In this document: one piece after another, positions 1 to 49,061 of the stretch
Position numbering within the stretch: the stretch's first letter is position 1
How the letters are laid out: each line of letters begins with the position of its first letter
Source: Thermoplasmata archaeon
GTDB lineage: Archaea > Thermoplasmatota > Thermoplasmata > RBG-16-68-12 > JAGMCJ01
NCBI GenBank assembly: GCA_046761005.1
Contig: JBHIFI010000002.1
Location: forward strand, 1,914-65,913
DNA: 64,000 nucleotides
Direction: 5' to 3'
Notes under the pieces: model-generated
What the model was told of the DNA's origin: nothing
Database searches by the model: none
Seen by the model: only the letters and a program-made list of their open reading frames with translations
Position numbers and translations under genes: made by a program

Positions 1-331
1 GACCAGAAATGACTCCAATCCCGTTTCGCAGTGCCTCTTTTATGGTGGGCCTGAACTCGCTCGGAAGAAAGCCGCCAATCGTAGCGACCCCTATTATCAA
101 CCAGTCTGGCTCCTTTCCCGCTTCAAGAGCATCTTTTAGTGAGGAATGAACATCTATACCTTTCGGTTTTCCATCCAAAACTACACCGGCATCCTCTCCG
201 GCATGACTGCTGTCTATCACTCCAATTATCTTGTACTTCTTGGAAAATCTCACAAGACCGTTTGCTGTTTTGCCCACGTTTTGACCGAAGCCTTCTTCGC
301 AGAGTATTATCGCTGTTTCCATCGCCATCAT
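1..331 (-). CDS. DUF1611-like (Rossmann/CoA-binding-type N-terminal domain) protein, 5' portion only; gene continues past the window start
   Basis: The minus-strand frame is open from ATG (reverse complement of 329-331) down to position 1. Translation MMAMETAIILCEEGFGQNVGKTANGLVRFSKKYKIIGVIDSSHAGEDAGVVLDGKP... resembles N-termini of DUF1611-family proteins. It is absent from the ORF track because the window edge truncates it. Divergent TATA-like boxes lie at 361-384. Confidence 0.5.
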   Translation of the reverse strand, partial: MMAMETAIILCEEGFGQNVGKTANGLVRFSKKYKIIGVIDSSHAGEDAGVVLDGKPKGIDVHSSLKDALEAGKEPDWLIIGVATIGGFLPSEFRPTIKEALRNGIGVISG

Positions 332-387
332 CGCTGGTTGGCTCAATAATGAGAGCGATAGATATTTAAGAAGCTATTTATAACTGC

Positions 388-1122
388 GTGGCGATTGAAG
401 TCAAAAGGGGGAGAATCAACAGCGTGTCCGCTAGTCGTAGGTTGAAGGTTGAAAGCAATCGCGCCGTCTCCTTGGGGAATGAGCTCTTTGCAAGAGGTCA
501 ATACGGAAAAGCGATGAAGGAATTCAACAGGGCTCTGAAGGCCAATCCAAAGAACGCCGTGGCATGGAATAACCGGGGAATCATACTCTGGAGAGCAGGA
601 AAACATCTCGAATCCATTCAATGTTTCAATAAGGCGATAAAGATTCATCCTAACTATTCCGATGCCTGGATGAACAAGGGTCTTGCGCTTTCCAAGATCG
701 CCAAGTATCAGAGAGCAATGAGATGTTATGACAGAGCCATGGAGATTGACCCTAATCATGAGATTGCCTGGAACAACAAAGGAAACATGCTGGCTAGGAG
801 AGGGAAATACAACGAAGCGCTGAAATGCTTTGACAAAGCACTCGACATAGACAGTGAGTACGTAGCGGCCTGGAACAATAGAGGCGCCACACTACTCAAG
901 GTAGGCAAATATCACGAGGCCCTGAGATGCTTCAATAGGGTTTTGAGAAGGCGGCCGAACTTCGCTGAAGTTTGGCTCCAAAAAGGCAGGGCTCTCATGC
1001 AACTTGGCCGTCCCAGGCACGCGATAATCTGTTTCGAGAAGGCTCTCTACTACCGAGAAACGTATCCCGCGGCTGAGAGGGCGCTGAAGGAGGCAATAGA
1101 AGCAAAGGAGGCAGTCGAATAG
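388..1122 (+). CDS. TPR-repeat protein (about 6 tandem TPR units); probably the N-terminal part of the downstream gene
   Basis: Repeated 34-aa TPR pattern (AWNNRGIILWRAGK..., AWMNKGLALSK..., AWNNKGNMLARRGK..., AWNNRGATLLKVGK..., VWLQKGRALMQLGR...). The GTG at 388 sits only about 4 nt after TATTTATAA (376-384), so the true start may be internal (for example GTG 424). The stop at 1120-1122 overlaps an open downstream frame (see findings). Confidence 0.7.
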   Translation: MAIEVKRGRINSVSASRRLKVESNRAVSLGNELFARGQYGKAMKEFNRALKANPKNAVAWNNRGIILWRAGKHLESIQCFNKAIKIHPNYSDAWMNKGLALSKIAKYQRAMRCYDRAMEIDPNHEIAWNNKGNMLARRGKYNEALKCFDKALDIDSEYVAAWNNRGATLLKVGKYHEALRCFNRVLRRRPNFAEVWLQKGRALMQLGRPRHAIICFEKALYYRETYPAAERALKEAIEAKEAVE

Positions 1123-1586
1123 TCGAGATAGAGCAGGACAGGTGCTCCCTGTGTGGGGCAACGATTCAACCCTATCTCAGATGCTCTCAGTGTGGATTCA
1201 CGTTAAGGAGAGACATCGAAGATCTAGTCGGGCCTTCCGAGACATGCCAGAGATGTAACCAAAGAGCTCGGATACAGTTCATTTGCTCCTCTTGCGGCTC
1301 GAAGTTCAGCTATAGTACGATAGTAAAAGAAGAGATTCAAGTCTGTCCTCTCTGTGGCTCCGAAGTCGAGAAGGGGGCGAAACAGTGCTCCTCTTGCGGA
1401 GCGATTCTCGTCAAGGAGAAGAAACCCAAGGAGATCATAATCGAGAAGACAAGGGAAAAGAGGAAGATTCTTGGAAGGATCTATGATGGGGATATCAAGG
1501 GGCTCAAAACCAGGCTCAAGATAGACGAGGATACCGCTGAGCTACTCTGTGGGAATGGGTACAATTCAGTTTGGAAGCTCAAACGT
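1077..1586 (+). other. Coding-like 5' extension of ORF 1587..5192: an array of about five CxxC...CxxC zinc ribbons with no in-frame ATG/GTG/TTG
   Basis: The frame of 1587..5192 is open back to the TGA at 1074-1076. It translates to ...DRCSLCGATIQPYLRCSQCGF...CQRCNQRARIQFICSSCGSKF...CPLCGSEVEKGAKQCSSCGAIL.... No canonical start codon occurs in these 170 codons. Confidence 0.6.
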
Positions 1587-4500
1587 GTGACTATATCCGA
1601 GCTGATGAAAACAGGACTCAGTAGGTCCGATGCGAGAAAGATAAAGGCGGCTGCGAAGAAGGTGCCAACCAAGCTGGCAGACGTGAAGAAGCGGATGGAG
1701 GAGATAGTTGAGCGGGAGTATGAGTGTCCCGTATGTTCCATGGTCGTGAGCGGTTTCGACGATTTCTGCTACAGCTGTGGGACACTCTTCATTACCGAGG
1801 TTGACGAGCGTATCATTCCCTATGATATCAGTAGGATAAGGGAGGGCATATCCACGCTCGCTTTCTTCGACGATAAGCTCCTCGCATATCCCGAAGATCC
1901 AATGCTCTGGTTCTCCAGAGGAGTTCTCCTCCGGTCAATGAGGAAGTATGAGAAGGCTCTCGATTCCATTGACAGGGCCCTTGAGCTTAATCCGTTTCTG
2001 AGGAATGCCTGGGTAATCAAGGCCGATATTCTCACAAAGATGAGAAGGTTCGACGAGGCGGCCTTCTGCTACAAGAAAGGAGTGGAGGAAGAGATTGGCA
2101 TAACCGATGAGGAACTTCGGGAGAGGAGGGAAGAGTTGAGAAGGTTCCTCAGCAGACTCAGCGAGGAAAGATGTCCTAATTGCGGTGCCACAGTTTTCGT
2201 TGGAACTGAAGTCTGTCCACTGTGCGGACAATCTCTCATCGAAGTTGAGAAGCTAGAGGTTCCAGAAGAGGAACTTCCCAAACTCCTTCCGCTCGAATAT
2301 AGAAAGGAATTTCCCAGATTGAAGCCTCTTGGCCTTGTCAATGGCCGTGGCCTCGTTAACGGAAGGGGGAAGGTAAACGGCCTAATCAATGGGAATGGTC
2401 TGATAAACGGTAGCGGCCTCACGAATCTCAGGGTGCTGAAACCTAGACCCGTCGTTTCCAGACTTTCTGCCATTGGAATCGCAGTCGTTATCCTACTCTC
2501 CGTTATATGGATGATGTATCCGGTTGAAAAGGTCGAAGTTGGAATAACCATAGATGGCAGTTTCGAGGACTGGTCTGGCGTTCGCTCATTCTCTGATCCA
2601 TTTCAGTCAGTGACGAATCCGAACATTAACATGTCCAAATACGCCATCGATCTTGAGGACGGAGTTCTCTCCTACCTCATCGAAGTTGAAGGCCTGCCTT
2701 TCCTTGATCCTTCAATCCCAGATTCATTCTTCGTTTTCATCGACAGTGATGCCAATCCTCAGACAGGCTACATCCTGCCAGAGCTTGGCGCAGACTACAT
2801 GGTAGACCTCTCAGGTTACAACGGCTCGCTCACGATGCACCGCCTCCTCAAGTTCAATATATCCCGCGAAAGGAATGATTGGGCTGGTTGGATCGGTGTG
2901 GGCGGTGCAAGAGCCGCCTTCAGAGATAACCGAATCGAACTCCAACTCAGCGGCCTAGTAATTGGCAACCTTTCCGACGACTTCCGCACCGTCCTATATG
3001 CAGATGACAACTCCGGAAATCTCACACATTCCTCGATAACCTTCGGAATGAGGGACAATCCCTCCCTTCTTGTCGTCCAGAGGGGATCTTCTGACGATGT
3101 AATCCCCCTGAGCCCAGAGGTTTCCGTTTTGAGGGTGGAACTCAAAGCAATTGAGAAGACAAGAGTGGGATCGATATCTCTCAGGGACTCCTTTTCAAAT
3201 CCCTATGAGTCAGTTTTGGAAACATCCCTTAATCTTGACAGTGGTGACAGACGCTCAATAAATGTTCCTGTGAATACTACACTTCTCGCTTCCCGTGTGG
3301 GCGAGCTTGTCACATTCTCTGTCTCAGGGCTTAGCGACAATCGTGGGAATGCAATCAAGTTCGACCTAACGGGTCGGCCCACCGTATGCTATATTGGCAA
3401 TCCACCCGCCGAAGAATTGATCGACGGGTGGTTCGGAAGTTGGAAAAACAAGACTCTAAGAGCGGATACCGATATGGTTGCGCCTAGGAACAGAAATCTA
3501 AACATTGAGAACTATTTTGCATTTCATAATCAGTCTGATAATTTTGCTTATTTCTACTTCAACGTCGAAGGAGAGGTCCTTGCAGGATTCGCCATTCCAC
3601 AGGTGAAAAAGAAGATAGTTCCCGCCGCACCGACGATTCCAGGGCCTCCTGGGATTCCCCCGCCGAACATGGGCGAAGACATAGCTAGAATCTATTTGGA
3701 CTCCAACTCCTCTATCCCATCTGAGTGTTTCATACACGAGATATATGCAGATGCACTGATTGACATCCGTGGGAAGTATGGGGAGATTACAAACCACACG
3801 GTTTATACGTGTCAGGGAGGTCTCTGGAGGCCCATCGATGATGCTGACTCTTACTCTGCGAACGATGAAACGCAAGTGGAAATCTCCTTGAGCCTTGCAT
3901 ACACACCCGATATAAGCAACACGAAGATATTTTTCACAATGACAGATTGGAAGAAAGATGTGGACAATGCAACCCTTGAGACGTCATGGGGGACTAAGAG
4001 CAGGACAAGAGCAATCTACACAATCGAGAGTACAACGAACTCGTTGACAACTACTGCGTTTTCCACGCAGAGGAAGCTTTTCTATGACGGAACGAACTTT
4101 TGGGCGATTTACTATGACGGAGGAGAAGGTGATACGCGCTATGAGTGGAGCGAGGACGGCGAAAGCTGGGATAATATCGCCTATAGCGTGTTCACTACCT
4201 CAGGAGTGATACACTCCTCGCTTTGGTATGATTACTCAAACCAGATCGTATATGTCGTCGGAGATGATTCTGCTTCTGACACTTCCGTGTTAGTGAGAAG
4301 GGGGACGGTATCACCCGGCACGAAAACGATCTCCTGGGGAACCGAGCAAACTGTTGTTATCTCAGCACTCGGTCTGCCAGCTAAGGTTCCCTTCATATGC
4401 AAGGTAGCTGATGAAAGGCTCTGGATTATTTCCAACACGAATGAGTCAGGGATACCCCCATTCAATGTCGCCGCCCGAAGGTCTACCAGTCCAGATGACA

Positions 4501-5192
4501 TACAAGAATGGGACGAGAGAACGGTTCTTAGAGACAGCGCGGTCGACGATAACTGGGTCTATCCAATAATATTGCCATTGTCTTCGAATGCCGAAGATGC
4601 GGATGCCTATGCGCTCTGGTACGCAGACGGGAATATAGAGGGAAAGAAATGGGAGAACAGCTCGAGTTCCTGGGAAAGCCAGGAGGACATTACAACGACG
4701 ACCGGTGATGTGGACTACAAGTCTCCATCTGCTGTTGTCGATGCGGATAATCAGGTTCATCTGATATATAGCGATTTGAGCGGTTACATGAGCTATATGT
4801 ACAGGGAGATCACGGGAACCTGGCAGACGGGACCGCAAATCGAAGGTACCGAAGCGGACAACCGGTATCCAACATTGACTCTACTGAATTCAACAGACCC
4901 AGAACAGCTCTATTCCTTCTATATAAGAAGCAATCAGATTTACTGCAAATACATGAGCATTGGCGGAGCGGAATGGTCATCAATAACTCTCACACAGAAC
5001 ACAGATACGAAGACGAATCTCACTTCAATATACTCTGTCTCATCGACAAGTCGTATTTCTTGGGAATGGCTCAACATTACTGGGTCCAATTACAATATCG
5101 ACTTTGAGAGGATCCCCGAGTTCCAAGACATCCTTGCACCCATTACTTTCGCCCTCCTGATACCCATAATTTTAAGGCGGAGAAAGAAGTAG
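1587..5192 (+). CDS. Large two-TM membrane protein with cytoplasmic TPR and zinc ribbons, an NG-repeat linker, a TM helix, an ~850-aa extracellular BNR/Asp-box beta-propeller-like region, and a C-terminal TM anchor with RRRKK tail
   Basis: The ORF track starts at GTG 1587. Elements seen: zinc ribbons CPVCS..CYSCG and CPNCG..CPLCG; TPR motifs at about residues 90-170; (L/I)VNG(R/N)G repeats at nt 2335-2430; TM helix AIGIAVVILLSVIWMMY (about 2464-2520); Asp-box motif WSEDGESWDN and related BNR-like S-x-D/G-x-T-W stretches; many N-x-S/T sequons; C-terminus IPEFQDILAPITFALLIPIILRRRKK. Confidence 0.75.
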   Translation: MTISELMKTGLSRSDARKIKAAAKKVPTKLADVKKRMEEIVEREYECPVCSMVVSGFDDFCYSCGTLFITEVDERIIPYDISRIREGISTLAFFDDKLLAYPEDPMLWFSRGVLLRSMRKYEKALDSIDRALELNPFLRNAWVIKADILTKMRRFDEAAFCYKKGVEEEIGITDEELRERREELRRFLSRLSEERCPNCGATVFVGTEVCPLCGQSLIEVEKLEVPEEELPKLLPLEYRKEFPRLKPLGLVNGRGLVNGRGKVNGLINGNGLINGSGLTNLRVLKPRPVVSRLSAIGIAVVILLSVIWMMYPVEKVEVGITIDGSFEDWSGVRSFSDPFQSVTNPNINMSKYAIDLEDGVLSYLIEVEGLPFLDPSIPDSFFVFIDSDANPQTGYILPELGADYMVDLSGYNGSLTMHRLLKFNISRERNDWAGWIGVGGARAAFRDNRIELQLSGLVIGNLSDDFRTVLYADDNSGNLTHSSITFGMRDNPSLLVVQRGSSDDVIPLSPEVSVLRVELKAIEKTRVGSISLRDSFSNPYESVLETSLNLDSGDRRSINVPVNTTLLASRVGELVTFSVSGLSDNRGNAIKFDLTGRPTVCYIGNPPAEELIDGWFGSWKNKTLRADTDMVAPRNRNLNIENYFAFHNQSDNFAYFYFNVEGEVLAGFAIPQVKKKIVPAAPTIPGPPGIPPPNMGEDIARIYLDSNSSIPSECFIHEIYADALIDIRGKYGEITNHTVYTCQGGLWRPIDDADSYSANDETQVEISLSLAYTPDISNTKIFFTMTDWKKDVDNATLETSWGTKSRTRAIYTIESTTNSLTTTAFSTQRKLFYDGTNFWAIYYDGGEGDTRYEWSEDGESWDNIAYSVFTTSGVIHSSLWYDYSNQIVYVVGDDSASDTSVLVRRGTVSPGTKTISWGTEQTVVISALGLPAKVPFICKVADERLWIISNTNESGIPPFNVAARRSTSPDDIQEWDERTVLRDSAVDDNWVYPIILPLSSNAEDADAYALWYADGNIEGKKWENSSSSWESQEDITTTTGDVDYKSPSAVVDADNQVHLIYSDLSGYMSYMYREITGTWQTGPQIEGTEADNRYPTLTLLNSTDPEQLYSFYIRSNQIYCKYMSIGGAEWSSITLTQNTDTKTNLTSIYSVSSTSRISWEWLNITGSNYNIDFERIPEFQDILAPITFALLIPIILRRRKK

Positions 5193-6395: not shown

Positions 6396-8765
6396 ATGGG
6401 AAGTTGGGATGTCAGATTGCTCAATGCCTCATACAAAGAGGAAAGCAAGGGTGTAGTCGTCGAACTCTTCGGCAAGACTCGTGATGATAGGTCCATCTCC
6501 ATAAGGTATGAGGGCTTCTATCCTTACTTCTATGTAGTCGACCCGCCCAAGATTCTTATAGATACGTTTGAGCATGACTCAGAGGTCAAAGAGATGCAAA
6601 GTGTCCAGCTCTGGGCGGATGGCGAGATGAGGAACTGCAAGCAGGTAATCCTGCATCATCCTTGGAAAACACCTGAGTATAGGGCACGTGCCAAGAGGTA
6701 TTGTGGTATTCTAGCCGCCGACATACCGTTTGCACTCCGCTTCATCTTTGACAAAGACCTGGGGTCATGTGTCAGGGTCGTGGGAGAAGAGGTGGAGGGT
6801 CCCTACAGCACAGAACTCGCTGTCAAGGCAGAGGGGTTTGAGCAGATAGAACCCTTCAATCCTTGGCTGAAGATCATGAGCTTTGACATTGAGAATAGCA
6901 TCAAGGATGGGAAAATATTCACGATATGTTGCGTCACAAGGGAGAACGGAGAGCTCCAAGATAAGTGCTTTGAGGGTTCAGAAAGGGAGATCATAGAGGG
7001 CTTCGTAGACTATGTAAAGGAAAAGGACCCTGACGTGATCACCGGATACAACATAGATGGATATGATATTCCCCTTCTTCGTGACAGGGCCAGAAAGAAC
7101 GCTATTCCCGAACTCTACCTTTCAAGAAACGATGTCCCCCTGCGGGAAGGTGGGGCGAGATTCTGGAGAATCTATGGGAGGATAGTCGCAGATGCATGGT
7201 GGAACGCCAAGAGAGAGCTCAGGCCGAAGCAAGAAACGCTGGATCACGTTGCAAGACTCGTTCTCGGCGAAGGCAAGAGGGACGTTGATCCAAGCAAGAT
7301 AGATGAGGAATGGGAGAAGGACAAAGAGAAGGTGATGAGATACTGCAAGAAGGATGCCCAGCTCGCATTGAGAATTCTGGAAAGCATTGGAGTTCTAGAG
7401 AAATCGATGGATTTGGCTATCGTTTCAAAGCTTCCAGTTGACTATGTTCTGAATGGCAGGACATCCACACTGATAGACTCCATACTCATCAGGACAGCCG
7501 ACCGCGCAAATGTCGGGGTCCCAATGACCCGCACAGGCCGCAGGGGCGAGTCCATAGAGGGAGGTTACGTTCACACTATTCCTTCTGGGCTCTACCATTG
7601 GGTCTGCGTTCTTGATTTCAAGGCGATGTATCCAAATCTCATAATCGCGAACAACATCTGTTTCACGACCCTTTCAGATGAGGGAACCATTTCCAGTCCT
7701 ACGGGGGCGAAATTCCTGAGCAAGGATGAAAAACTGGGGCTTCTGCCAAACATACTGAGTAACCTGATGAAGCAACGTGATGAGGCAAAGGCCCAGATGA
7801 GGGAGGCAGAGGGAGACAAAAGGAAGTACTATGACGGACTGCAGGATGCCATCAAGATATTGATGAACGCCTTCTACGGTGTCTTCGCCTCGAGCTTCTA
7901 CAGATTTACCAATCCCAAAATCGGAGCAACAATAACTGCAATCGCTAGAGAAAATACGAAAAGCGTTATCTCCCAACTAGAGGACGAGGGTCTGAGGGTG
8001 ATATACGGTGATACCGACAGCGTCTTTTTCCAATCACCTGAGGAAGGTGTGGATTCGTCCGTCAGAATCGGAGAGGGAATCGCGGAAAGATTTTCTAAGG
8101 GCGGGGCAATCCTGGAATTCGAGAAGGTCCTGGAGCCGTTCTTCTCTCACGGAAGGAAGAAGAGATACGTGGGCAAGGTTGTGTGGCCGGAGGAGGATCT
8201 TCTTGTTCGAGGCTATGAGTTGAGGAGAACGGATGCCTTTGATCTCCAGAGCGAAGGGCAGGCGATGCTGTTCGAGAGAATAATGGAAAACGACATAGAC
8301 GGTGCCATTCGCATCGCAAGAGATCTGGTTTCCGATGCTAGAGAGGGAAAGGTTCCTTTCGAGAAACTTGTCATATCCCGCACGGTGCGGGATGAGAAAA
8401 GCTACGTCAGTCCTGATGCACTTCCCAATGTTCAGGCGGCCCGCAAGTTGAGGGAGTGGGGGTATGAGGTCGTTCCCGGAATGAAGGTCTCCTGGATTGT
8501 GACAGATGGGAAGAAGGCTCCACAGCAAATCTCACCCTATGTCAGCGGAAGAGAGTTCGAGGATACGCCAGACTGGAACTACTACGCCCGCAGGTTGGCG
8601 CACACACTCGGCTACGTCACTGAGGTCTTCGGATGGGATGAGAAGAGTCTTTTGGCGGGAAGTCAGCAGGTCACTCTTTTCCACGAGGATTTCGGTACCA
8701 AGAGGAACACTGATGTGAAGGTCAAGAAGACAGAAAAGAAGCTCACTCTGGAAGATTTCATGTGA
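6396..8765 (+). CDS. polB: DNA polymerase, family B (archaeal PolB)
   Basis: Exonuclease motif FDIE (MSFDIENS), polymerase motif A DFKAMYPNLI, motif C YGDTDS (VIYGDTDSVFF), KKRY motif (GRKKRYVGK). 789 aa. Confidence 0.9.
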   Translation: MGSWDVRLLNASYKEESKGVVVELFGKTRDDRSISIRYEGFYPYFYVVDPPKILIDTFEHDSEVKEMQSVQLWADGEMRNCKQVILHHPWKTPEYRARAKRYCGILAADIPFALRFIFDKDLGSCVRVVGEEVEGPYSTELAVKAEGFEQIEPFNPWLKIMSFDIENSIKDGKIFTICCVTRENGELQDKCFEGSEREIIEGFVDYVKEKDPDVITGYNIDGYDIPLLRDRARKNAIPELYLSRNDVPLREGGARFWRIYGRIVADAWWNAKRELRPKQETLDHVARLVLGEGKRDVDPSKIDEEWEKDKEKVMRYCKKDAQLALRILESIGVLEKSMDLAIVSKLPVDYVLNGRTSTLIDSILIRTADRANVGVPMTRTGRRGESIEGGYVHTIPSGLYHWVCVLDFKAMYPNLIIANNICFTTLSDEGTISSPTGAKFLSKDEKLGLLPNILSNLMKQRDEAKAQMREAEGDKRKYYDGLQDAIKILMNAFYGVFASSFYRFTNPKIGATITAIARENTKSVISQLEDEGLRVIYGDTDSVFFQSPEEGVDSSVRIGEGIAERFSKGGAILEFEKVLEPFFSHGRKKRYVGKVVWPEEDLLVRGYELRRTDAFDLQSEGQAMLFERIMENDIDGAIRIARDLVSDAREGKVPFEKLVISRTVRDEKSYVSPDALPNVQAARKLREWGYEVVPGMKVSWIVTDGKKAPQQISPYVSGREFEDTPDWNYYARRLAHTLGYVTEVFGWDEKSLLAGSQQVTLFHEDFGTKRNTDVKVKKTEKKLTLEDFM

Positions 8766-38529: not shown

Positions 38530-40806
38530 CTACTTCTCCCTTCTTCTGAAAGATGCTATCACTAGAACTGCCAGTAGGGTGACCGCAACTACTGCGAATG
38601 TGCCGATATCGGGAATAGGTTCGGTCGTGACTACTTCTTTTGGCACAACACCGCCCCAGCCCCTCACGGCGATGTTTGCGAATCCGCTTCCTTCCTGGTA
38701 TCCCTCCTTTTCTGCTGTCACCGTAACCCTGAAGTTCGTGTCGGTCGTGACGTTTCCGGTGAAGGAAGCCGACCATTCTCCATCAGATACCTCTGTGAGC
38801 GTTCCAAGTGTTGTGCCCGCCAAATCCACAGACATGTGAACTGTGCAATTGGCAACGGGAAGTAGGTCCTTATCCGTTATGACTACCGTGACTGTCGTTG
38901 TCTCACCAGAGTTGATTATTGGTGCCGTTCCAGTGACATCGACATCAAGGGGATTGACAGCTGGATGCACTGTTAGCTTGATACTGTCTGAGGCTCCTTC
39001 GTATGTCTGCAGGAATACTGTTGCCTCAATCTCAACATCTGTTGAATCCGAGACGTCTGGAGCAACGTATTTGGTTTCGAAAACGCCCAGTGAATCCGTC
39101 GTCCCACTCGGAGATTCGAAGATCCCGATATCAGCAGAGAGTTCGACATTCACCCCTTCCACACTTGATTCACTTTCGTCAAGCACAAGCACAGTCACAG
39201 TGACGTTGCCACCAGATTCCACGGAAGACTCGGATGTAGACAGCGTTTTTAGCACGAGCGGGCCCACTTGTATCTTGTGGAGGTTTGTGAAAGACCAGAA
39301 GTTGTTTATTCCTCCAGCCATGTCTACCCAGCCCCCATAGACCGTTCTGTTGTAGGCCTCGATTGCATCGTACGAAAGGACGGGAGCAAACAGAACTTTC
39401 TCTGAGATGAGCCCGAGGGCTTGATGAACGTATGTCTGCCTGGTTGCCATGTCTATTGCATCATCCGCCGCATCGAGTGCCGCCGTTATCTCAGGATCGC
39501 TGTAATCAGCAAGCATAGGAATTTCCCTAATGGTAGCGGGCTCGAGGGGAAGCCTTTCCATTGCTAGGTAGATGTCAAAGCCAGAGGGATCCGTGGCCGT
39601 TGTGTTTAGGGAGACGCTAAGCCCGAGCCTATTGAGGAGTCCACTGTAAGCGATTGCTATGTTGGATTTCGTTATGTCCTCTGCAATTGAGGGTCCTAAC
39701 ATTGTCATCTGAAGTGCACTGCCATCTGGTTTTTCTCTCCATCCATCTCCGTCCCTGTCACTATAGTTCAGCCTTTCAAGTTCGAGAAGGCTGGGCACAT
39801 AGTTGGTGTCAGTTTCTCCAGCAGGATTGAGGAATGACCCTGCATTATACTTCACTATGGATCGATTGTACCAGGGCTCATTTTGGGAACTCATCGGTGA
39901 GTGGACTATGATTGTATTTGGCTCCAAAGAGAGGAACAGCTCCTTGTTTATGGCCATGGCCAGAGCCTTCCTAAGTTCTGGGGTTGCCAACTCGTCGATT
40001 GGATTGAAACCAATGAAGAGGTATTCAAGTCCGTAAGTGTAGGAAATCGCGAGCTTTCCTACTTCTGCTTCAGTCATTATACTCTTGTTCTCATATCTGG
40101 CATCGGTCGTATCAGTAGGAGCGAGGGTCCAGCCTATGAAATCAACGGTCCCATTGATTAGCGCATTTGCCGCCGCATCGATGTCTTGATAGACCTTGAA
40201 TTCTATGGTGTCAAGATAGGGTCTGCCATGGAAGTACTCGCTGTAGGCACCAATGGTGACGCTTTCCGCCGTGGTGCCGATGAACTCGAAAGGACCGCAC
40301 CCCTCAGTGGGAGCGGCATCGTCGGACTTAACAAGGGGCTTCTGCAGGCCCTCCGTCATGAACTTCCCTCCGCCACCACCAGAGAAGTCAAAGCGAACCT
40401 CTGTCGGGGAGAGAATGCTCACGTCATAGCCGCCATAGTAAGTTCCGAAGGTGTATTCCACATCCGTCGCAGTAACTGGAGTGTCGTCATGCCAGAGGAC
40501 ATCGGTTCTCAAGACAACGGTCACCGTCTGATTCTCCTGATCCACTGACCAGCTTTCGGCAACCCAAGGCTTTACCTGAAGAGTGACCGGGTCGAGACGT
40601 CCAAGAGAGTCGTACAGAAGGTCAATCATGTGCAAACTAGCTTCATCTGATGCTGTCTTGGGATTCAAATCCAGTGCAGTATCCTTCACAGCAACCCGGA
40701 AGTCTCCTCCGTACAGTCCGGAGATCTCTTCTGGAGTGGCGGCAAAGGCAGAGACAGCGAAACTCAGGACGAAGAGCATCGTCAGTCCGAATGCTAGTGT
40801 TCTCAT
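38530..40806 (-). CDS. Extracellular solute-binding protein, family 5 (oligopeptide/dipeptide OppA/DppA-like), with two C-terminal Ig-like domains and a C-terminal TM anchor
   Basis: Signal peptide MRTLAFGLTMLFVLSFAVSAFA. SBP_bac_5 core (DFRVAVKDTALDLNP..., WHDDTPVTATDVEYTF). About 180 extra C-terminal residues of beta-rich repeats end in a TM plus RRREK. ATG overlaps the subtilase stop (ATGA). Confidence 0.8.
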   Translation of the reverse strand: MRTLAFGLTMLFVLSFAVSAFAATPEEISGLYGGDFRVAVKDTALDLNPKTASDEASLHMIDLLYDSLGRLDPVTLQVKPWVAESWSVDQENQTVTVVLRTDVLWHDDTPVTATDVEYTFGTYYGGYDVSILSPTEVRFDFSGGGGGKFMTEGLQKPLVKSDDAAPTEGCGPFEFIGTTAESVTIGAYSEYFHGRPYLDTIEFKVYQDIDAAANALINGTVDFIGWTLAPTDTTDARYENKSIMTEAEVGKLAISYTYGLEYLFIGFNPIDELATPELRKALAMAINKELFLSLEPNTIIVHSPMSSQNEPWYNRSIVKYNAGSFLNPAGETDTNYVPSLLELERLNYSDRDGDGWREKPDGSALQMTMLGPSIAEDITKSNIAIAYSGLLNRLGLSVSLNTTATDPSGFDIYLAMERLPLEPATIREIPMLADYSDPEITAALDAADDAIDMATRQTYVHQALGLISEKVLFAPVLSYDAIEAYNRTVYGGWVDMAGGINNFWSFTNLHKIQVGPLVLKTLSTSESSVESGGNVTVTVLVLDESESSVEGVNVELSADIGIFESPSGTTDSLGVFETKYVAPDVSDSTDVEIEATVFLQTYEGASDSIKLTVHPAVNPLDVDVTGTAPIINSGETTTVTVVITDKDLLPVANCTVHMSVDLAGTTLGTLTEVSDGEWSASFTGNVTTDTNFRVTVTAEKEGYQEGSGFANIAVRGWGGVVPKEVVTTEPIPDIGTFAVVAVTLLAVLVIASFRRREK

Positions 40807-43800
40807 GGCTCACCCTCCTCTGGTGGCGGGATTTCCTCAGTTGGCTCTTCAGGAGGGACCTCTTCGGCAGGAGGCTCTTCCGGAATCTCAATCTCCTCCA
40901 GTGCTTCCTCCTCTTCCGGAACCTCCTCAACGACCTCTTCTTCAACGGGTGGGATCTCTTCCTCCGGAACTTCCTCCTCAGGCACTGCAGGCTTCTTTCC
41001 CAACGTGAGGCCAATGACAAAGCCAATTACGAGGAGAACGATAGCAAGAGCAGTGAGTATCAATGTTGTCCATGTTTGCTTCGTAACCTTCATCTCCGGA
41101 GACCATGTAATGGATATAGCTTCCGAAGCAACATTTCCCGCCTCGTCCTTTGCTATGACTGTGATTTCGTTGGCGCCGTAGCTGAGGGTAACCTCTTTGC
41201 TGAAGGCTCCGTTCGACGGAACTACTGGAAGACCATTTACCGTCACGATTTCCACGTCGCCTGACACTGTTCCTGTAATGTTAATTCTTGAAACCAAAGC
41301 TTCCCCGGTTATCGGGTCAACGTTGTCCTCAGGAATAGAGACCGTCAGGGTAGGAATGACGGTGTCTCTAATCATGACTGTGTCATTACTGTAGAATGTA
41401 TGGCCTGCGGCGTCAACCGCCTCTATTTCAATAGTGTTCGTGCCTTCCTCCAGCGCTACGGTCGTTTCAAAGCTTCCGTCCTCGTTCACTGGAACAATCC
41501 TCCCAGCGATGGTCAACTCCACAGTCTCGTTGAACTTCCCAGAGATTATGATGGATTCTGCGTTTGTTGGCCGGGCCTGCGACTCAGATGTAATCAGGTA
41601 TTCCAGTACGGGCGGATTCGTGTCAACTGTTATGAGTCTTGTCACAACAGCGGTGTTGCCAGCTTGATCTTGGGCTTCAACGATAAGTGGATTGAGCCCC
41701 TCTGTCAATTGGTCAAACAGATAGGAGAAGGAACCGTCTGGGCTTACGGGCACCTCCTCAGTGCGAATTAGGACAGTCGCTTCAGGCTCGGTGGTTCCAG
41801 TTATCATAGTATAGTTTGTCGGAACGGTGATGTCCGTTGATGGGTAATCAATTTCAAGCAATGGCGCGGTCGTATCTACGTAGAAATGCCATGTCATTTC
41901 TTCTATATTGCCTGCGTAATCTCCAACCTGCGTCTTCACCGTATGCATTCCATCGGCAAGAGGTGCATTTGGAGCATAGCTGACTGTTCCTATTGCATAA
42001 CCACCGAGATCTGAATCGAAGGTTACTGTGACCAACGACATAGCAGTTATGTCAACACCATCCAACCACAAGCCTATCGTTGTTGAATCCATCTCTCCTT
42101 GGCTGTCAGAAAAGCCTGCGAGTATTGGAGGCATGTTATCCGACGTTACTGAACCATCTGGAGGAGTCATTTGGATAACCTCTGGAGGAGTGGTGTCGTA
42201 GTTCAGTTCGACGGGAACGAGAAGCGTCAACGAGAATGGCGTGTTCCCTGGTGATGCAAAGAAGGCTGCTTTAATCACTCCCTCAGGGGTATCCACTGGA
42301 AGGTCCCATTCAAGATTGAGGATTTCGCTGGAGTACCTCTGAATGATATCCGCAGTGTATGTAACTTGGAAGGGCGATGGTCCCACCTTAAGTTCTGTGA
42401 TTATCATGTCCGCAAGTGAGCCGACCCTCCAGATGTCGAAGCCAGCCATCTTGATAATGTATCTACCTGGCGTTGGAAGGACCAGGACTACAGTCTCATC
42501 TGCGTCTGCGTCGGCATCGTACTTGACAAATTCGTCTGCTTGAGCCTCATCATCGCCGTTCTCGTCGAGGAATATTCCGAGGTCCATATCTGGGCAGCAG
42601 TCGACATGTCCCATCAGATGGAACTCTATCGTTATGACTGAAGCATCGACGTCCCAAAGCATGGTGTTCTTTGAACTAGCAAGGTATTCCTGGAAAGTTA
42701 TTTCGCCGGACGTATAGGGCTCCGGGTCATCAAATTCAACTGGAATGTCGAGGAACTCGTGGGTTTCTGAACCAGCAACAGTGACGCCTATCGGCTTGCC
42801 AAAGAACTCGTGGAAAGGATCTGGATTGGGTAACCACGGTAGAGTCGTCGAAAAAATCATCTCGGTTGAGCCCTGCAACTGACTCGTAGCAACATCAATC
42901 GGATAGGGTGTCATGCTAAGAAGACCTGTTTCTCCGGAGATGACATCAGCGGCTTCCTCCCCTTCGACTGTGACTGTTTGCACGATTAGGACGTTAAGAC
43001 CTGCACTAACACTGAGACCCTTGAAGAGACCATTTCCGACTCCCGCCCAGTCTGGAGTCTTCTTGAAGTATCCTGGAGCTCCAACATCCGTTTCGACGGC
43101 CACGAACGGCCCATATCTGCTCTCATTCAGCTTAGAGAAGACAAGGTCGCCAAAAGCAGAAGAACCTTCCTCAGTCGCCTGAGCGAGATGCCGCATATCG
43201 CCATAGGTGTTGTTCCCATCCATACCTATGTCAATTGTGAACTTCATCCCCTCTCTGAATACGAATGTATCAGGAACGTCGAAGAAGTAGTACCTCAAGT
43301 CATACGCGCCTCCGTAACCTCTAAGAGCATTGTTATCGTACAGTGTATCGGAAATAGCGGTTCCTCCGAACTGGAAGTTTGTGGAACCCTCGTGAGCCAC
43401 ATTTATTACCACTGGAATGGTTGTGACATTGTTCTCGTTTGTTAGGCGGATTGCACCCTCATAGAGTCCTATGTCCGTACCTGGCAGCACAGTTGCAGTT
43501 GCTACGAAATCAAATGAGCCGCCTGCGGTTATGTCGATGGTCGGTCCAAGAGGTGTGACACCATCATCCTCATAAAGAGTAACCATCGGCCAGTTCTGGT
43601 GCTCGAAGAACTCAATTGTCACAGTGACGGGTCCGGGTACAGGGGCACCGGCGAGATGCCTCCACCAGATGATTAGTCCATCATGAGTTCTTGCTGCGGG
43701 ATCGTAGACTCTGACCTCGAAGGAGTTCTCACCCAAGTAGACTCCCATCCTGTTTCTTTCAAACCAAGCTCCTGTCACTCCGAAGGGCAGATCTGGATCG

Positions 43801-46800
43801 ACTAGCATCGCTCCTGTGGAGGTCCACCACAGGTCTATCTCACCTCCATAGCTCACCGCCCAGAACCAGTCATAACCAGGTGCGAAACCTACGTCTGTAA
43901 TTCCATAATCATATGTAGGAGTGACAGACGTTATGACTGAATCGGCTAGAATGTCCCAGATTGCCACATCCGTTGCATTGGCAACCGCCAGATACATGTT
44001 GGCCACATCAAAGTCTACACACATTGGATATTCCTGTAACATCGTATATGTTGGCGGGAGATAATCGTACTCAACCGTAACGTTTGCCCCCAACGCGAGT
44101 GTGCCAATGTAGAGCAATATGCCATTAGCGGTATACATGATATAGTCACCCATGCCACTCGCGATGTCAAGCTCGTAGACTGGCGAACCGTCCACCCAAA
44201 CCTGGTATGAGAATGGAACGACGCTCGTGTTCCCTAGGAAGAACACTGGGAAACCTGTGTAGTTGAAGGTGTCATTCCCCGTTGAAGGCGCCAGGGTCAT
44301 ATCCCAGACATTCACCGTTCCAGTGCCAGCCATGCTCCAGTCAGATCCCAATCCTACCGAAGCGAGCCACATGCTGTCAGAGCTGAACCTAAGGTCCATG
44401 ACTCCGTCAGCGTCAGCAGACCAATCGCCATCCTCATGGCCACTAAATCCTCCAATGTATGCACTTGTGGTCGGATCCCAGAGCATTATGTAGTTATCCC
44501 AGATACCGAAGGCGCCGCCGGAACCCGTTGCGATGACGGACCCATCTGGGCTCCATGCAATGGTGTTGACGACTTCAAGATGGCCGCACATCGTTGAAAG
44601 CACATTCCCTGCGAGGTCCATGACAAAGACGTCTCCCAAGAATCCGGGGAGGCAAAAGTCTCGCGGGAGTCCATTTAACCATCTGATGGCTGAGTTGAGA
44701 CTCGAGACATACGCTATCTGACTCTCATTCGCCGGATTGAACTCCACTCCATTGATCGAGTAGCCGAAGAGGAGGTCATCCGAGACTACGATTCGTGAGC
44801 GGGTAGGTACATCCCAGACTGCAACTGCGCCAGAATCGATGGGCCACCCACCCGAAGAGGCCGCTAGCATGCTGCAGTTGGATGAGAAGTCTATGTCATT
44901 GATCATCGTGCCTTCCAACCCTCTTAGCCTGTCAATCGGATAACCGGTTGCATTGTCCCATAGAATGATGATGCCATCCTCCGCACCGGTTGCGAAAATC
45001 GTGCCATCGGAGCAGAAATCCATGGCGGTAACGTTCGCGGAATGCCCAAAGAACCGTTCATTCATGTTGACATCGGTCCAGTCATGCGGTTCTACGTATA
45101 TCATCTGGTTGGTCAGCAGGTCGATATCGAAATGGGCGGTAATTCTGAGAAGGTCCGCATTGTTCCATCTTGTAGCATCCATGTTGGGTCCAAACTTCCT
45201 TCCTAAGAAGTCGTAGAATCCTGTCTCGTTGATGATAGTCCAGTTGTTACCCACGGGCTCTGGCGGTGCTTGAATGGAGGGCTCGAATGCATATTCTATG
45301 GTGCCCATCCTCTTCAGGTAGTCAGCAGAAACTCCAACGTTGGTCAAGTCTGCCGGTCCGCGATTCTCCACCGTAATCATTTCGGAATCAGACTCACCAA
45401 CCGTAAGGAAGTGGACGAAGGCCACATAGTCCTCTCCCCTGTAGTCGCCTGGATACCAGACCTCAGGATCGGCGAGAATACCTCCTCTGTTGCCAGCTAG
45501 ATCAGTGGCGCGCAGGGCATTACCGTACCCATGACCCTGAGTGAAGACATCATAGTTCATATCATCAGCACTTGACAGCAGAATCTTCTGAGCTTCAAAA
45601 GCATCCATGTAATATCCGTGCTCCTGCTCATATGCATCCTGCATGAGTGCGATTACGGCTGTTGCGTGCGGTGCAGCCATACTTGTGCCTGCATCTATGT
45701 CCCATGCAGCAGTCCCATCACGGAATGGGTTCAACGGATAAGCATCATAGACCCAACCACCAGCAAAGCAGATATCAGGACCTAGTTGACCAGTTGCGGA
45801 GGGTCCCCAAGAGGAGAGATAGGCTATCCCGCCGTAGTGGGGATTCGGTCCTCCATCGTATTCAAACTCTGGTTGCACCCTGTAGAAGAGGTCCCACGCC
45901 GCGCAAGCGCTGATGGTTCCTGGTGTGACCGAGTTTCCGGAGGTCCCATAGCCGGTACCCTCATTTCCAGCGGCTTTCACATGGATTGTCTTGCCCTCTG
46001 CGTACTGGGTTGTGACCCAATCTCCATATCTCTCGCCAAGAGTCCATCCTGTTTCAATCGGATTGGAACCGAAACTCCAACTCAATACGAGGCCTTCATC
46101 GCCGGTCCCTGGCACTCCATCATAACCCTCTACACCGAAGAGGAATCCGTGATACTGGGTGAATGCGCCATGCGAAGTCCCCCCGGGTATCGAAATAACC
46201 TTCGCATCAGGTGCCAATCCCATCAGCTTCGGTATACCACCGATAGGAGTCACGCCCTGACCCACGATACTCGTGGCTACAGCTGTTCCATGCGAGCCGT
46301 ATATCGCACCGCTGAAGGCAACCATATCACCGGCGCCCCAGTAGTAGTTGTCCACTCCCAGGCGTCCTGCGACGATATCCGAATAGGGTATTGGTACAAC
46401 ACCGTAGGAATAATTCACAGTGATGACATCGAAGCTTTCAAGTGGATATGTGAATGTGAAGTTCCCCGTCACCCTGTTCAGAATCCATGGGTGGTACTCG
46501 TAGGTCGCTCTGGCAATACCGCCAGGCGGCAGTCCATTGGACAAAGTAATGAGACCTTCTGTGTAGTCAACTGTGTAATCATCTCCCGTCACCAATTTGC
46601 CCTCAGCATCGTTCCAATCATTTCCTTCAATAAGAACTCCATCGTAACTGTAGTTAGCCCAGAAGGTATCTCCTGGCATATTGACTATGAGGGGGTCCGG
46701 ACTACTCAGAAGTTCAGCTCCAAGCACGACCTCGCCCGTTCCTGCATCAGCGGCGTAATTGCCGGGATCGATTTCTGTAATCACAGGTCCAAACCAGTCC

Positions 46801-49061
46801 TGCTCTTCATCGCCATCAAAGTCAGTAAGACGGACTCTGTAGAGAACAATATCAGTGAATCCCGTATGCGTGAGATTGAAACGGTCATCGGTGGCGGGAT
46901 CGACGACCACGAATTGTTTGGTCATGTCGGTTGGGTCTCTTCCAGTCTCATTTAGCACAGCGCCTGTTACAGTGAGCACAATGGTATCTTCAACGACATT
47001 CTTGTTCGCAAGTTGCAGTTCCTTAGTCAGTTCTGTGGCGTCGAGAACCAACTCATCGACGATGGGTATCGTATTCCATGGTATGGAATTCTTACTCACA
47101 TCCACAACGTCGCTTACGGTCACATTTCCGTTGGCTAGTTGACCCCAAGTCTCACCGCCGATTGCAGTGGTGCCTGTAATGTTGGTTTCATTGCCTAGAA
47201 CGAGCTGTTCGCCTGTGATATTTGTGGCATTACTTATGAAGTAGAGAAGACCGCCAGAAACGTCCGCGAGACCATCAAGGTCCAGGTCCTTCCATAAGTT
47301 CGGGCTAGCCTTCGTGGCAGCCATCTCATTTGTGAAATTGAAGTCATTGTCCAGGTCTACATATACTGTGTCGTATACTCCATTCCATGTCGAGTCAACC
47401 ACAAGCACCGCAGGCGCCATGAAGTATGCAGCTTTCAAGCTAGAATCCCAGTGAAGACCTACATGGTACTTTCCACTTACGCTCGCAATTCCTGTCACAT
47501 CGTAGTCGGTATCCTGCATGACAATGCTGACGAAATCGATGTAGATATCGGCAAGTGTTGGGTTGGAGGTCGCGTATCCAAGAATCACCAGTATGTAGTC
47601 GTTCTCTGTTTCTGGATTGTATATCGGTGAGAACACCTCAGGATTGGCTCCAGTGCTTGTTTCTTGGTAAGAAACCAGTTCCGACTGGTCTATGTCATTG
47701 TCTCCGTTTGCATCGTAGTAAAGTGCCAGGTCCAAGTCATCACCGGGCGTGAATGCGACCAAAATATTCATCTGGACTGTTCCGACAGGAACCGCGAATG
47801 GTAGTCTATATCCAGCGGTCAAGAACACATCTGGAAATCCAGCACTCAGATCATCATCATATATCTCCACGCCAAGATAGGAGGTCGGTGTCAGGAGAGG
47901 AGCATCCCTGTAGTAAGTGATTATGTCCCCCACGGCCTGGAGTTCTGTTGAAGTATCGACAAACATACCTGATAGTTTGCCCTCCTCGGAGAGATAGGTA
48001 TCAATCGCCGGCGGTTCGAACGAAATGGGCCATCCGGCGTACGGTGAGCTGTACTTGTAGGTGGCAGTTACAACATCATTGAGTACCAAGGGCGTCACAA
48101 AGGTTATCACGCCAGTCGCTGAATCAAAGGTGTAGTTAGCAGGGGGCATCAGATTGCCGTTCAGATAGAAGGAATAGTCAGTAACATCCATATGCATGAG
48201 GGTGGCATTCGTCTCACCACCAACAGCTTTGATGACAGTTATGTTATCTATCGTGGTATTATCGGGCTGGACGGCCCAAGTCCCCTGGAGGTCAGAATGT
48301 CCGAAATCTATTCCCTGATCGAGGACTACGACGACCTCTCCAGCTCCCGTGTACCCATTGGCCCAGGCTTGATCCGCCATATGAGTTACCACGGAGATCC
48401 AATCATTTGTTGTCGGAGGATCTTCTCCCATTGGCTGAGGTCCCTCCGAACCACGCATCGAACCCATCGGTTGGGATGGAGAGTCAATGACAACAGGATC
48501 CAGTTTTATGCCCTTTTCCCTTGCCTTTCTTTCTATCCATCGATTCTGGTCCAGTGGTTGGCGGTTGAGTGGAACGTCTCCACCAACAACCTCTTCTTGC
48601 ACCTCCAACATGTCAGGGGTGTAGACTTCCTGCCGTCCTATCAACAGAACCTCATCAATCGCGCTCAGTACTGGGAGAACGTAAGCGGGAACCTCAAGAA
48701 TTATCGGTGTTGGTATCGTCTTTATTGTCGCTTTCTCACCAATCAATCCCCGATATTCATACTTCTCGAGAGCCCTAGCTACTGCGGAGACATCCGAGAC
48801 TATGAGGACCACGCCTACCATCTCTTTGCCTCCGCTCTTCGCCAAATCTAGCAGAGCAGGATCGATTTTCCCTAGTGCGAGCTCCTCCGGCTGAGGAAAT
48901 GAAGGTTCCTCCGCTAAGAGAAATTCTTCACCTTGCCCGACGGGCTTCTCGTCGAACGCCTCACCACCTGAAGATGTTGCGAGTGTGGTGCTGACGAAAA
49001 GCGATAGGGCAAGCAGCCCTACAACGATTCCACTAATCCACTTGACACTTTTTTTGGACAT
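40803..49061 (-). CDS. Giant (2752 aa) secreted/membrane-anchored S8 subtilisin-like serine protease with WD40 beta-propeller repeats, multiple Ig-like/beta-sandwich domains, a C-terminal TM helix and an acidic (PEE)n tail
   Basis: Signal peptide MSKKSVKWISGIVVGLLALSLFVSTTLATSS. Catalytic motifs in D-H-S order: VVVLDQGIDFGHSDL, HGTAVATSIVGQG, GTSMAAPHATAVIALM. WD40-like units (FGHSANVTAMDFCSDGTIFATGAEDGIIILWD; CGHLEVVNTIAWSPDGSVIATGS). C-terminus ...LILTALAIVLLVIGFVIGLTLGKK followed by PEEEVPEEEIPP.... Promoter TATA at 49118-49125 and a GGAGG Shine-Dalgarno. Confidence 0.85.
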   Translation of the reverse strand: MSKKSVKWISGIVVGLLALSLFVSTTLATSSGGEAFDEKPVGQGEEFLLAEEPSFPQPEELALGKIDPALLDLAKSGGKEMVGVVLIVSDVSAVARALEKYEYRGLIGEKATIKTIPTPIILEVPAYVLPVLSAIDEVLLIGRQEVYTPDMLEVQEEVVGGDVPLNRQPLDQNRWIERKAREKGIKLDPVVIDSPSQPMGSMRGSEGPQPMGEDPPTTNDWISVVTHMADQAWANGYTGAGEVVVVLDQGIDFGHSDLQGTWAVQPDNTTIDNITVIKAVGGETNATLMHMDVTDYSFYLNGNLMPPANYTFDSATGVITFVTPLVLNDVVTATYKYSSPYAGWPISFEPPAIDTYLSEEGKLSGMFVDTSTELQAVGDIITYYRDAPLLTPTSYLGVEIYDDDLSAGFPDVFLTAGYRLPFAVPVGTVQMNILVAFTPGDDLDLALYYDANGDNDIDQSELVSYQETSTGANPEVFSPIYNPETENDYILVILGYATSNPTLADIYIDFVSIVMQDTDYDVTGIASVSGKYHVGLHWDSSLKAAYFMAPAVLVVDSTWNGVYDTVYVDLDNDFNFTNEMAATKASPNLWKDLDLDGLADVSGGLLYFISNATNITGEQLVLGNETNITGTTAIGGETWGQLANGNVTVSDVVDVSKNSIPWNTIPIVDELVLDATELTKELQLANKNVVEDTIVLTVTGAVLNETGRDPTDMTKQFVVVDPATDDRFNLTHTGFTDIVLYRVRLTDFDGDEEQDWFGPVITEIDPGNYAADAGTGEVVLGAELLSSPDPLIVNMPGDTFWANYSYDGVLIEGNDWNDAEGKLVTGDDYTVDYTEGLITLSNGLPPGGIARATYEYHPWILNRVTGNFTFTYPLESFDVITVNYSYGVVPIPYSDIVAGRLGVDNYYWGAGDMVAFSGAIYGSHGTAVATSIVGQGVTPIGGIPKLMGLAPDAKVISIPGGTSHGAFTQYHGFLFGVEGYDGVPGTGDEGLVLSWSFGSNPIETGWTLGERYGDWVTTQYAEGKTIHVKAAGNEGTGYGTSGNSVTPGTISACAAWDLFYRVQPEFEYDGGPNPHYGGIAYLSSWGPSATGQLGPDICFAGGWVYDAYPLNPFRDGTAAWDIDAGTSMAAPHATAVIALMQDAYEQEHGYYMDAFEAQKILLSSADDMNYDVFTQGHGYGNALRATDLAGNRGGILADPEVWYPGDYRGEDYVAFVHFLTVGESDSEMITVENRGPADLTNVGVSADYLKRMGTIEYAFEPSIQAPPEPVGNNWTIINETGFYDFLGRKFGPNMDATRWNNADLLRITAHFDIDLLTNQMIYVEPHDWTDVNMNERFFGHSANVTAMDFCSDGTIFATGAEDGIIILWDNATGYPIDRLRGLEGTMINDIDFSSNCSMLAASSGGWPIDSGAVAVWDVPTRSRIVVSDDLLFGYSINGVEFNPANESQIAYVSSLNSAIRWLNGLPRDFCLPGFLGDVFVMDLAGNVLSTMCGHLEVVNTIAWSPDGSVIATGSGGAFGIWDNYIMLWDPTTSAYIGGFSGHEDGDWSADADGVMDLRFSSDSMWLASVGLGSDWSMAGTGTVNVWDMTLAPSTGNDTFNYTGFPVFFLGNTSVVPFSYQVWVDGSPVYELDIASGMGDYIMYTANGILLYIGTLALGANVTVEYDYLPPTYTMLQEYPMCVDFDVANMYLAVANATDVAIWDILADSVITSVTPTYDYGITDVGFAPGYDWFWAVSYGGEIDLWWTSTGAMLVDPDLPFGVTGAWFERNRMGVYLGENSFEVRVYDPAARTHDGLIIWWRHLAGAPVPGPVTVTIEFFEHQNWPMVTLYEDDGVTPLGPTIDITAGGSFDFVATATVLPGTDIGLYEGAIRLTNENNVTTIPVVINVAHEGSTNFQFGGTAISDTLYDNNALRGYGGAYDLRYYFFDVPDTFVFREGMKFTIDIGMDGNNTYGDMRHLAQATEEGSSAFGDLVFSKLNESRYGPFVAVETDVGAPGYFKKTPDWAGVGNGLFKGLSVSAGLNVLIVQTVTVEGEEAADVISGETGLLSMTPYPIDVATSQLQGSTEMIFSTTLPWLPNPDPFHEFFGKPIGVTVAGSETHEFLDIPVEFDDPEPYTSGEITFQEYLASSKNTMLWDVDASVITIEFHLMGHVDCCPDMDLGIFLDENGDDEAQADEFVKYDADADADETVVLVLPTPGRYIIKMAGFDIWRVGSLADMIITELKVGPSPFQVTYTADIIQRYSSEILNLEWDLPVDTPEGVIKAAFFASPGNTPFSLTLLVPVELNYDTTPPEVIQMTPPDGSVTSDNMPPILAGFSDSQGEMDSTTIGLWLDGVDITAMSLVTVTFDSDLGGYAIGTVSYAPNAPLADGMHTVKTQVGDYAGNIEEMTWHFYVDTTAPLLEIDYPSTDITVPTNYTMITGTTEPEATVLIRTEEVPVSPDGSFSYLFDQLTEGLNPLIVEAQDQAGNTAVVTRLITVDTNPPVLEYLITSESQARPTNAESIIISGKFNETVELTIAGRIVPVNEDGSFETTVALEEGTNTIEIEAVDAAGHTFYSNDTVMIRDTVIPTLTVSIPEDNVDPITGEALVSRINITGTVSGDVEIVTVNGLPVVPSNGAFSKEVTLSYGANEITVIAKDEAGNVASEAISITWSPEMKVTKQTWTTLILTALAIVLLVIGFVIGLTLGKKPAVPEEEVPEEEIPPVEEEVVEEVPEEEEALEEIEIPEEPPAEEVPPEEPTEEIPPPEEGEP

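Follow-up and report, generated by a model that had tools for sequence, protein, structure and literature searches.

The gene for a large zinc-ribbon (ZnR) membrane protein on a 64,000-nucleotide stretch of Thermoplasmata DNA (contig JBHIFI010000002.1; the window hereafter) appears, from alignment with its orthologues, to carry ATA where its ATG start codon belongs, the result of one G-to-A substitution at position 1130 with no frameshift or indel. The same comparison indicates that this gene (1128-5192) and the gene for a TPR protein that precedes it (424-1122) are two separate co-directional genes which form a conserved pair, and that codons 1128-1586 (n = 153), which at first sight lack a start codon, are the normal N-terminus of the ZnR gene. 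The case falls in the class of start-codon substitutions in otherwise intact genes, and both this kind of lesion and near-cognate initiation are already well known.

Results

A reading frame without a start codon

The frame of the 1201-aa ORF at 1587..5192 is closed upstream by the TGA at 1074-1076 and is open from 1077 into that ORF. Between 1077 and 1586 it contains not one in-frame ATG, GTG or TTG, and its near-cognate codons are ATA, ATT, ATC and CTG only. The open frame and its missing start had both been described in an earlier reading made from the letters of the DNA (the sequence-only reading), and both are confirmed on the sequence, as are the TAG at 1120-1122 which ends the TPR ORF in a different frame and the resulting 46-nt overlap of the two frames (1077-1122). 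When stop-to-stop frames of at least 200 codons within the window are compared, the start-less stretch is a clear outlier: its first canonical start lies 170 codons past the upstream stop, against at most 33 in the 46 other frames. With the window's own coding usage, in which ATG, GTG and TTG together amount to 5.1%, a run of 152 codons without a start-type codon has p ~3.5e-4. The block appears start-less because, by coincidence, the 152 codons that follow the ATA at 1128 include no other ATG, GTG or TTG.

The junction in related genomes

A scan of one genome per species provided two Thermoplasmata MAG contigs, L002 (JAGMCJ010000022) and L003 (JBHIFJ010000020), to which the conceptual protein aligns over its full length (1119-5189 query, residues 1-1357) with 69-71% identity; their N-terminal block is ~80% identical in protein to that of the window. 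In the window, L002 and L003 alike, a divergent upstream gene is followed by the TPR gene and then by the ZnR gene, and L003 additionally shares the GTPase and PolB. In both relatives a TAG at 6598-6600 ends the TPR gene and an ATG at 6606 opens the next gene, the product of which begins MERDRCSLCG in L002 and MEMDRCSLCG in L003. The DNA of the junction aligns without gaps between the window (GGAGGCAGTCGAATAGTCGAGATAGAG), L002 (GGAGGCAGTCGAATAGTCGAGATGGAA) and L003 (GGAGGCAATCGAATAGTCGAGATGGAG). The TPR stop occupies the identical aligned position in the relatives, and the ATA at 1128-1130 aligns exactly with their start ATG between identical flanks. Since the coordinate offset is constant on both sides of the junction (L002 - 5478 = window), no base has been gained or lost there. 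Two genes are again seen with the more distant orthologue P0001 (38% identity, contig L001): a separate TPR gene lies immediately upstream of it, and the two overlap as ATGA (-4 nt). No TPR partner was found upstream of the distant homologue P0006.

The proposal that the whole of 1077-1586 is coding stands for 1128-1586, which is conserved and gives Pfam matches above cut-offs, and fails for 1077-1127, which in the ZnR frame is non-coding and lies outside the ZnR gene. The coordinates of these and the other features discussed are collected in Table 1.

Table 1. Features of the TPR/ZnR locus, in window coordinates.
Feature	Position	Strand	Evidence or remark
TATA-like box TTTATAA	376..383	+	putative promoter of TPR/ZnR two-gene unit
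SD-like GGGGGAG	407..413	+	10 nt ahead of GTG 424; kept in all three genomes
TPR-repeat protein gene, 232 aa, six TPR units, stop TAG 1120-1122	424..1122	+	a separate gene
Open codons ahead of the true start, n = 17	1077..1127	+	TPR-gene 3' end out of frame, plus spacer
GGAGG within TPR-gene 3' end	1107..1111	+	16 nt before ATA 1128; 7 nt before ATA 1119
Intergenic spacer TCGAG, 5 nt, TPR stop to ZnR start	1123..1127	+	identical in window, L002 and L003
ATA at ancestral ATG start position, G-to-A at 1130	1128..1130	+	window GAATAGTCGAGATAGAG vs L002/L003 GAATAGTCGAGATGGA
Complete gene for 1354-aa membrane protein	1128..5192	+	full-length orthologue match; no internal stops
Three C4 zinc ribbons, six CxxC	1143..1400	+	motifs, Pfam; 12/12 Cys kept in L002 and L003
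Helical helix-hairpin-helix (HhH) domain, residues 120-178	1485..1661	+	AF2 block pLDDT 80-90
GTG, Val154, internal codon in HhH domain	1587..1589	+	first canonical start-type codon in frame

Constraint on the N-terminal block

A codon alignment of the three orthologues, with branch lengths taken from pairwise dN values, gives for codons 2-153 a dN of 0.060 on the window branch, 0.068 on that of L002 and 0.114 on that of L003. Pairwise dN/dS is 0.04-0.10, values which are rough because dS is saturated (1.7-3.1). The 12 cysteines are all retained, and stops and indels are absent throughout the 1354 codons. These observations point to purifying selection on the N-terminal block for essentially the whole history of the window lineage. 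Three readings agree with this: a recent change, a block that is still translated, or an erroneous A. The absence of decay is explained equally well by continued translation, by a very recent null mutation and by a base-call error.

The zinc-ribbon membrane protein and its family

Read from 1128, the protein presents three Zn ribbons, an HhH domain, a further Zn ribbon, two TPR units, another Zn ribbon, (V/I)NG repeats and a TM helix, followed by an extracellular domain of ~870 aa and a C-terminal PEF motif, helix and RRRKK tail. The zinc-ribbon block had been taken as translated sequence belonging to the downstream 1201-aa ORF, and the Pfam ribbons and the orthologue match uphold this; the further TPR units and ribbons that had been noticed in the downstream protein are likewise borne out by the domain order. 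The count of about five ribbons in 1077-1586 has to be lowered to three C4 ribbons, the rest being a linker and the first half of the HhH domain. The CxxC motifs begin at nt 1143, 1182, 1245, 1284, 1344 and 1386. With scores above the gathering cut-offs of Pfam DZR (PF12773; 29.3 bits, cut-off 27.3) and Zn_Ribbon_1 (PF13240; 28.1 bits, cut-off 25) and with their CxxC motifs paired, the ribbons belong to the zinc-ribbon domains. The Pfam HHH_5 match on nt 1518-1661 is weak (E=0.0025), and the same domain is recorded for homologues P0001-P0006. Residues 1-453 were modelled with AlphaFold from 8 sequences (mean pLDDT 62.7). The model places the beta-rich ribbons at residues 1-95, then a disordered linker and a confident helical domain at 120-178; beyond 178 come the fourth ribbon, the TPR helices (229-343), the fifth ribbon, the disordered (V/I)NG region and the TM helix.

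An exhaustive HMMER search with the ribbon-HhH block returned 278 proteins at E<=1e-3. Among the 26 homologues examined, the first CxxC is found at residue 6-18 in 25 and at residue 35 in one, which is probably called too long, and an N-terminal TPR block is found in none. Full-length homologues have 1076-1319 aa, which agrees with the 1354 codons counted from 1128. The ZnR protein is thereby placed, on sequence and domain comparison, in an uncharacterised Thermoplasmata/Thermoplasmatota family of ZnR-HhH-TPR-TM surface proteins, some members of which are annotated 'tetratricopeptide repeat protein' or 'helix-hairpin-helix domain-containing protein'. With this family, of which P0021, P0022, P0026 and P0027 are examples, it shares domain order, length, the short leader before the first CxxC, the (V/I)NG repeats ahead of the TM helix and the PEF, helix and basic tail, but the window copy differs from the family in having no ATG.

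The extracellular domain had been labelled a BNR domain, a label that finds no backing in a strict Asp-box (BNR) regular expression, which matched nowhere. The domain has no Pfam match at E<=5, and against NCBIfam it gives only a far-sub-threshold 'beta propeller lectin' match, no curated family covering it. Judged by eye, the examined full-length homologue closest to the window in this domain is P0030 (1310 aa), whose first residue is V and whose alignment starts only at the third ribbon; it may have a mis-called or truncated N-terminus, or may be a variant without two of the ribbons.

The C-terminal tail (window 5100-5189, ERIPEFQDILAPITFALLIPIILRRRKK) is made up of a PEF motif, a hydrophobic helix and a basic end, a tripartite arrangement (IPEFQDILAPITFALLIPIILRRRKK) found in 10 of 12 full-length homologues. 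We take this tail to resemble the archaeosortase-type PEF-CTERM sorting signal; an NCBIfam scan at E<=1 lists no CTERM model for the ZnR protein. Directly ahead of the TM helix, at ~2330-2430 (aa ~402-433), lie G-x-(V/I)-N-G repeats (GLVNGRGLVNGRGKVNGLINGNGLINGSGLTN) that are conserved across the examined homologues and that also end an otherwise different zinc-ribbon protein, P0012. We know of no described function for these repeats.

The TPR gene and its upstream region

Pfam TPR_1 matches the TPR protein in 6 stretches (E=1.5e-55), in agreement with the six units originally proposed. Its gene had been drawn from the GTG at 388, which alignment with the relatives suggests is probably too far upstream. 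This codon, 12 codons ahead of the GTG at 424, is unconserved and reads ATC in both L002 and L003; GTG 424 aligns with the starts of the relatives (GTG in L002, ATG in L003) and is most likely the TPR start. The sequence ahead of the TPR gene is conserved at 92% between the window and its relatives (alignment of window 330-440, L002 and L003), and the TTTATAA within it may serve as promoter of the TPR/ZnR unit. The two genes stand too close for a promoter to fit between them, so that co-transcription is most likely. A scan for bacterial promoters and terminators was uninformative, the source being archaeal. Elsewhere in the window, the survey records two very long ORFs on the - strand, at 40803-49061 (~2750 aa) and 57332-61144 (~1270 aa).

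Discussion

How the ZnR gene may now be translated

On balance we favour a real and recent substitution at 1130, as a consequence of which the expression of the ZnR gene would be strongly reduced or nearly lost. A strong reduction is to be expected where the ATG is lost and near-cognate initiation is all that is left. Full-length protein would then be made only through inefficient near-cognate initiation, from AUA 1128 or from AUA 1119 in the same frame, and the ZnR gene may be an incipient pseudogene; any product from GTG 1587 would be without the ribbons and half of the HhH domain. In E. coli, initiation at AUA reaches 0.02-3% of that at AUG (bioRxiv 10.1101/063800), and in ribosome profiling of Haloferax volcanii ~30% of alternative initiation sites were near-cognate (PMC7261190).

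The surroundings of the two AUA codons differ. In a survey of upstream regions, other genes of the window have their GGAGG-type motifs starting at -13/-12, and the nearest GGAGG to the ZnR start, which begins at -21, is too far away, so that 1128 has no well-placed SD. AUA 1119 overlaps the TPR stop as ATAG and has the GGAGG at the genome-typical spacing of 7 nt. Ribosomes that terminate at the TPR stop 5 nt upstream may aid initiation at the AUA by termination-reinitiation coupling. The distance between the TPR and ZnR genes is +5 nt in the window, L002 and L003 and -4 nt in L001, inside the intergenic range of -8 to +10 nt that predicts termination-reinitiation in H. volcanii as well as in E. 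coli, and in which subunits of one complex are enriched (PMC10666635, PMC6728339). Translational coupling is probable for the pair: it resembles the coupled pairs already described (Huber et al. 2019, PMC6728339; PMC10666635) in being co-directional and tightly spaced, with a downstream start that lacks a well-placed SD, although the classic cases restart on canonical codons. That the tight spacing is conserved suggests that the products of the two genes probably work together. Both AUA initiation and reinitiation at the ZnR gene would follow by analogy with these systems. The analogy is drawn from other organisms; in Thermoplasmata archaea AUA is not known to be used as a start codon.

Alternative explanations

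The sequence-only reading had listed sequencing error, a recent pseudogenising mutation and non-AUG initiation as fallbacks to its own proposal, and the explanations that survive are found in this list. Next in probability to a real, damaging substitution, at a considerable distance and on the whole unlikely, comes an artefact, in which the codon at 1128-1130 is ATG in the organism itself, the A at 1130 being a miscall or a minority allele carried into the consensus. In keeping with such an origin, only one base differs within a 30-nt context that is otherwise perfectly conserved, the gene remains intact along its 4 kb and shows no relaxed constraint at its N-terminus, and the relatives are metagenome-assembled genomes, as the window may be too. 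However, substitution errors are rare in consensus assemblies, start codons make up ~0.3% of a genome (a rough estimate, uncomputed), and start-loss alleles that are real should be no less common than the artefact. Informally, moreover, no other broken gene was noticed, the 46 other long frames all having a canonical start no more than 33 codons from the upstream stop.

What keeps a base-call error in play is that same-species sequence was not found. Neither the 1201-aa ORF nor the neighbouring GTPase had an exact protein match on record, and a degenerate DNA pattern of the junction had 0 matches in metagenome contigs. Scanned with a protein profile, metagenome contigs yielded only an unrelated TPR match (L004), and a protein search with the C-terminal domain yielded only fragments on short contigs. 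The search with the N-terminal block for same-species sequence returned P0016 only, a 178-aa gene call made from the contig L005 (JGI Ga0115863_1196281). This contig is a chimera at ~1540-2228, where a molybdopterin-oxidoreductase-like ORF is abruptly joined to a fragment of a ZnR homologue; the fragment, at 80% identity, begins downstream of the start codon and diverges again at its 3' end.

Less probable still is a real ATA that is tolerated, with AUA reinitiation 5 nt past the TPR stop supplying the full-length protein. If true, this would be a natural archaeal near-cognate restart codon working through translational coupling, and the coupled AUA restart would possibly set a low ratio of the membrane protein to its TPR partner. 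Natural non-canonical starts exist, such as the AUU of infC and pcnB in E. coli, and the locus resembles known start-loss and near-cognate starts in that a conserved ATG position is one base off in an ORF that is otherwise intact. The AUU of infC, however, is conserved and regulatory, whereas the ATA occurs in the window sequence only; as the two nearest relatives keep ATG, there is no sign of a selected feature.

We regard as improbable the adoption of GTG 1587 as a working start, which would yield a 1201-aa protein without the three ribbons and leave 1128-1586 as an untranslated leader. The codon does have the merit of being the first canonical start-type codon of the frame, but as Val154 it is predicted to sit in the middle of the HhH domain, which is confidently modelled as helical; L002 has Ala at this position and no SD-like motif precedes 1587. 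Furthermore 1128-1586 is stop-free, with every Cys conserved and a low dN on the window branch, whereas stops and indels would be expected there had the untranslated state lasted long. As the true start of the gene, GTG 1587 is ruled out by its place inside a domain and its lack of conservation.

The original proposal was a single TPR-ZnR fusion, its frame broken by an indel or bridged by programmed -1 frameshifting within 1077-1122, and this we hold to be scarcely credible: the 46-nt overlap of the frames, the TPR units and ribbons of the downstream protein itself and the conserved, tightly spaced pair with its probably cooperating products speak for it, but L001, L002 and L003 each have two genes, with a stop and an ATG start of their own and the downstream ATG of L002 and L003 aligned at window 1128, no base is inserted or deleted relative to orthologues before or after the junction, and an N-terminal TPR domain occurs in 0 of 26 homologues. 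These comparisons, alignment with orthologues and a homologue search with the ribbon-HhH block, are among the checks suggested alongside the proposal; the former found no continuous ORF and the latter no TPR-fused N-terminus in the 26 homologues examined. Separate genes in the orthologues, with a canonical downstream start aligned within 1077-1586, are the very outcome that the sequence-only reading had named as refuting the fusion. Programmed -1 ribosomal frameshifting is known from dnaX and from IS elements, and the locus is like it in geometry only, with overlapping frames of which the downstream one is at -1. It differs in that its orthologues are separate genes and in having neither a slippery heptamer nor a stimulatory structure: the absence of a heptamer from the overlap, already stated in the sequence-only reading, is confirmed by a scan of 1060-1122 that found neither X XXY YYZ in the TPR frame nor a homopolymer of at least 4, and RNA 1095-1215 folds no better than shuffled sequence (z = 0.22). 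The class of split genes and programmed frameshifts is excluded because its defining features were looked for and are missing. Pyrrolysine at the TPR stop, or read-through of its TAG, was also considered and rejected, a second TAG following two codons later in a frame without ribbons.

Implications for annotation and for the TPR/ZnR pair

A gene caller limited to ATG, GTG and TTG would start the ZnR gene at GTG 1587 and so lose three ribbons and half of the HhH domain, and the start-less look of the block also tempts one to merge the ZnR gene with the TPR gene. The corrected annotation suggested by the alignment has a ZnR gene at 1128-5192 of 1354 codons, with a non-canonical or mutated start, and a TPR gene at 424-1122. 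In this Thermoplasmata lineage the TPR protein and the ZnR membrane protein form a pair that is conserved and tightly spaced, and should the A at 1130 be real, it would make the locus well suited as a natural test case for archaeal near-cognate reinitiation.
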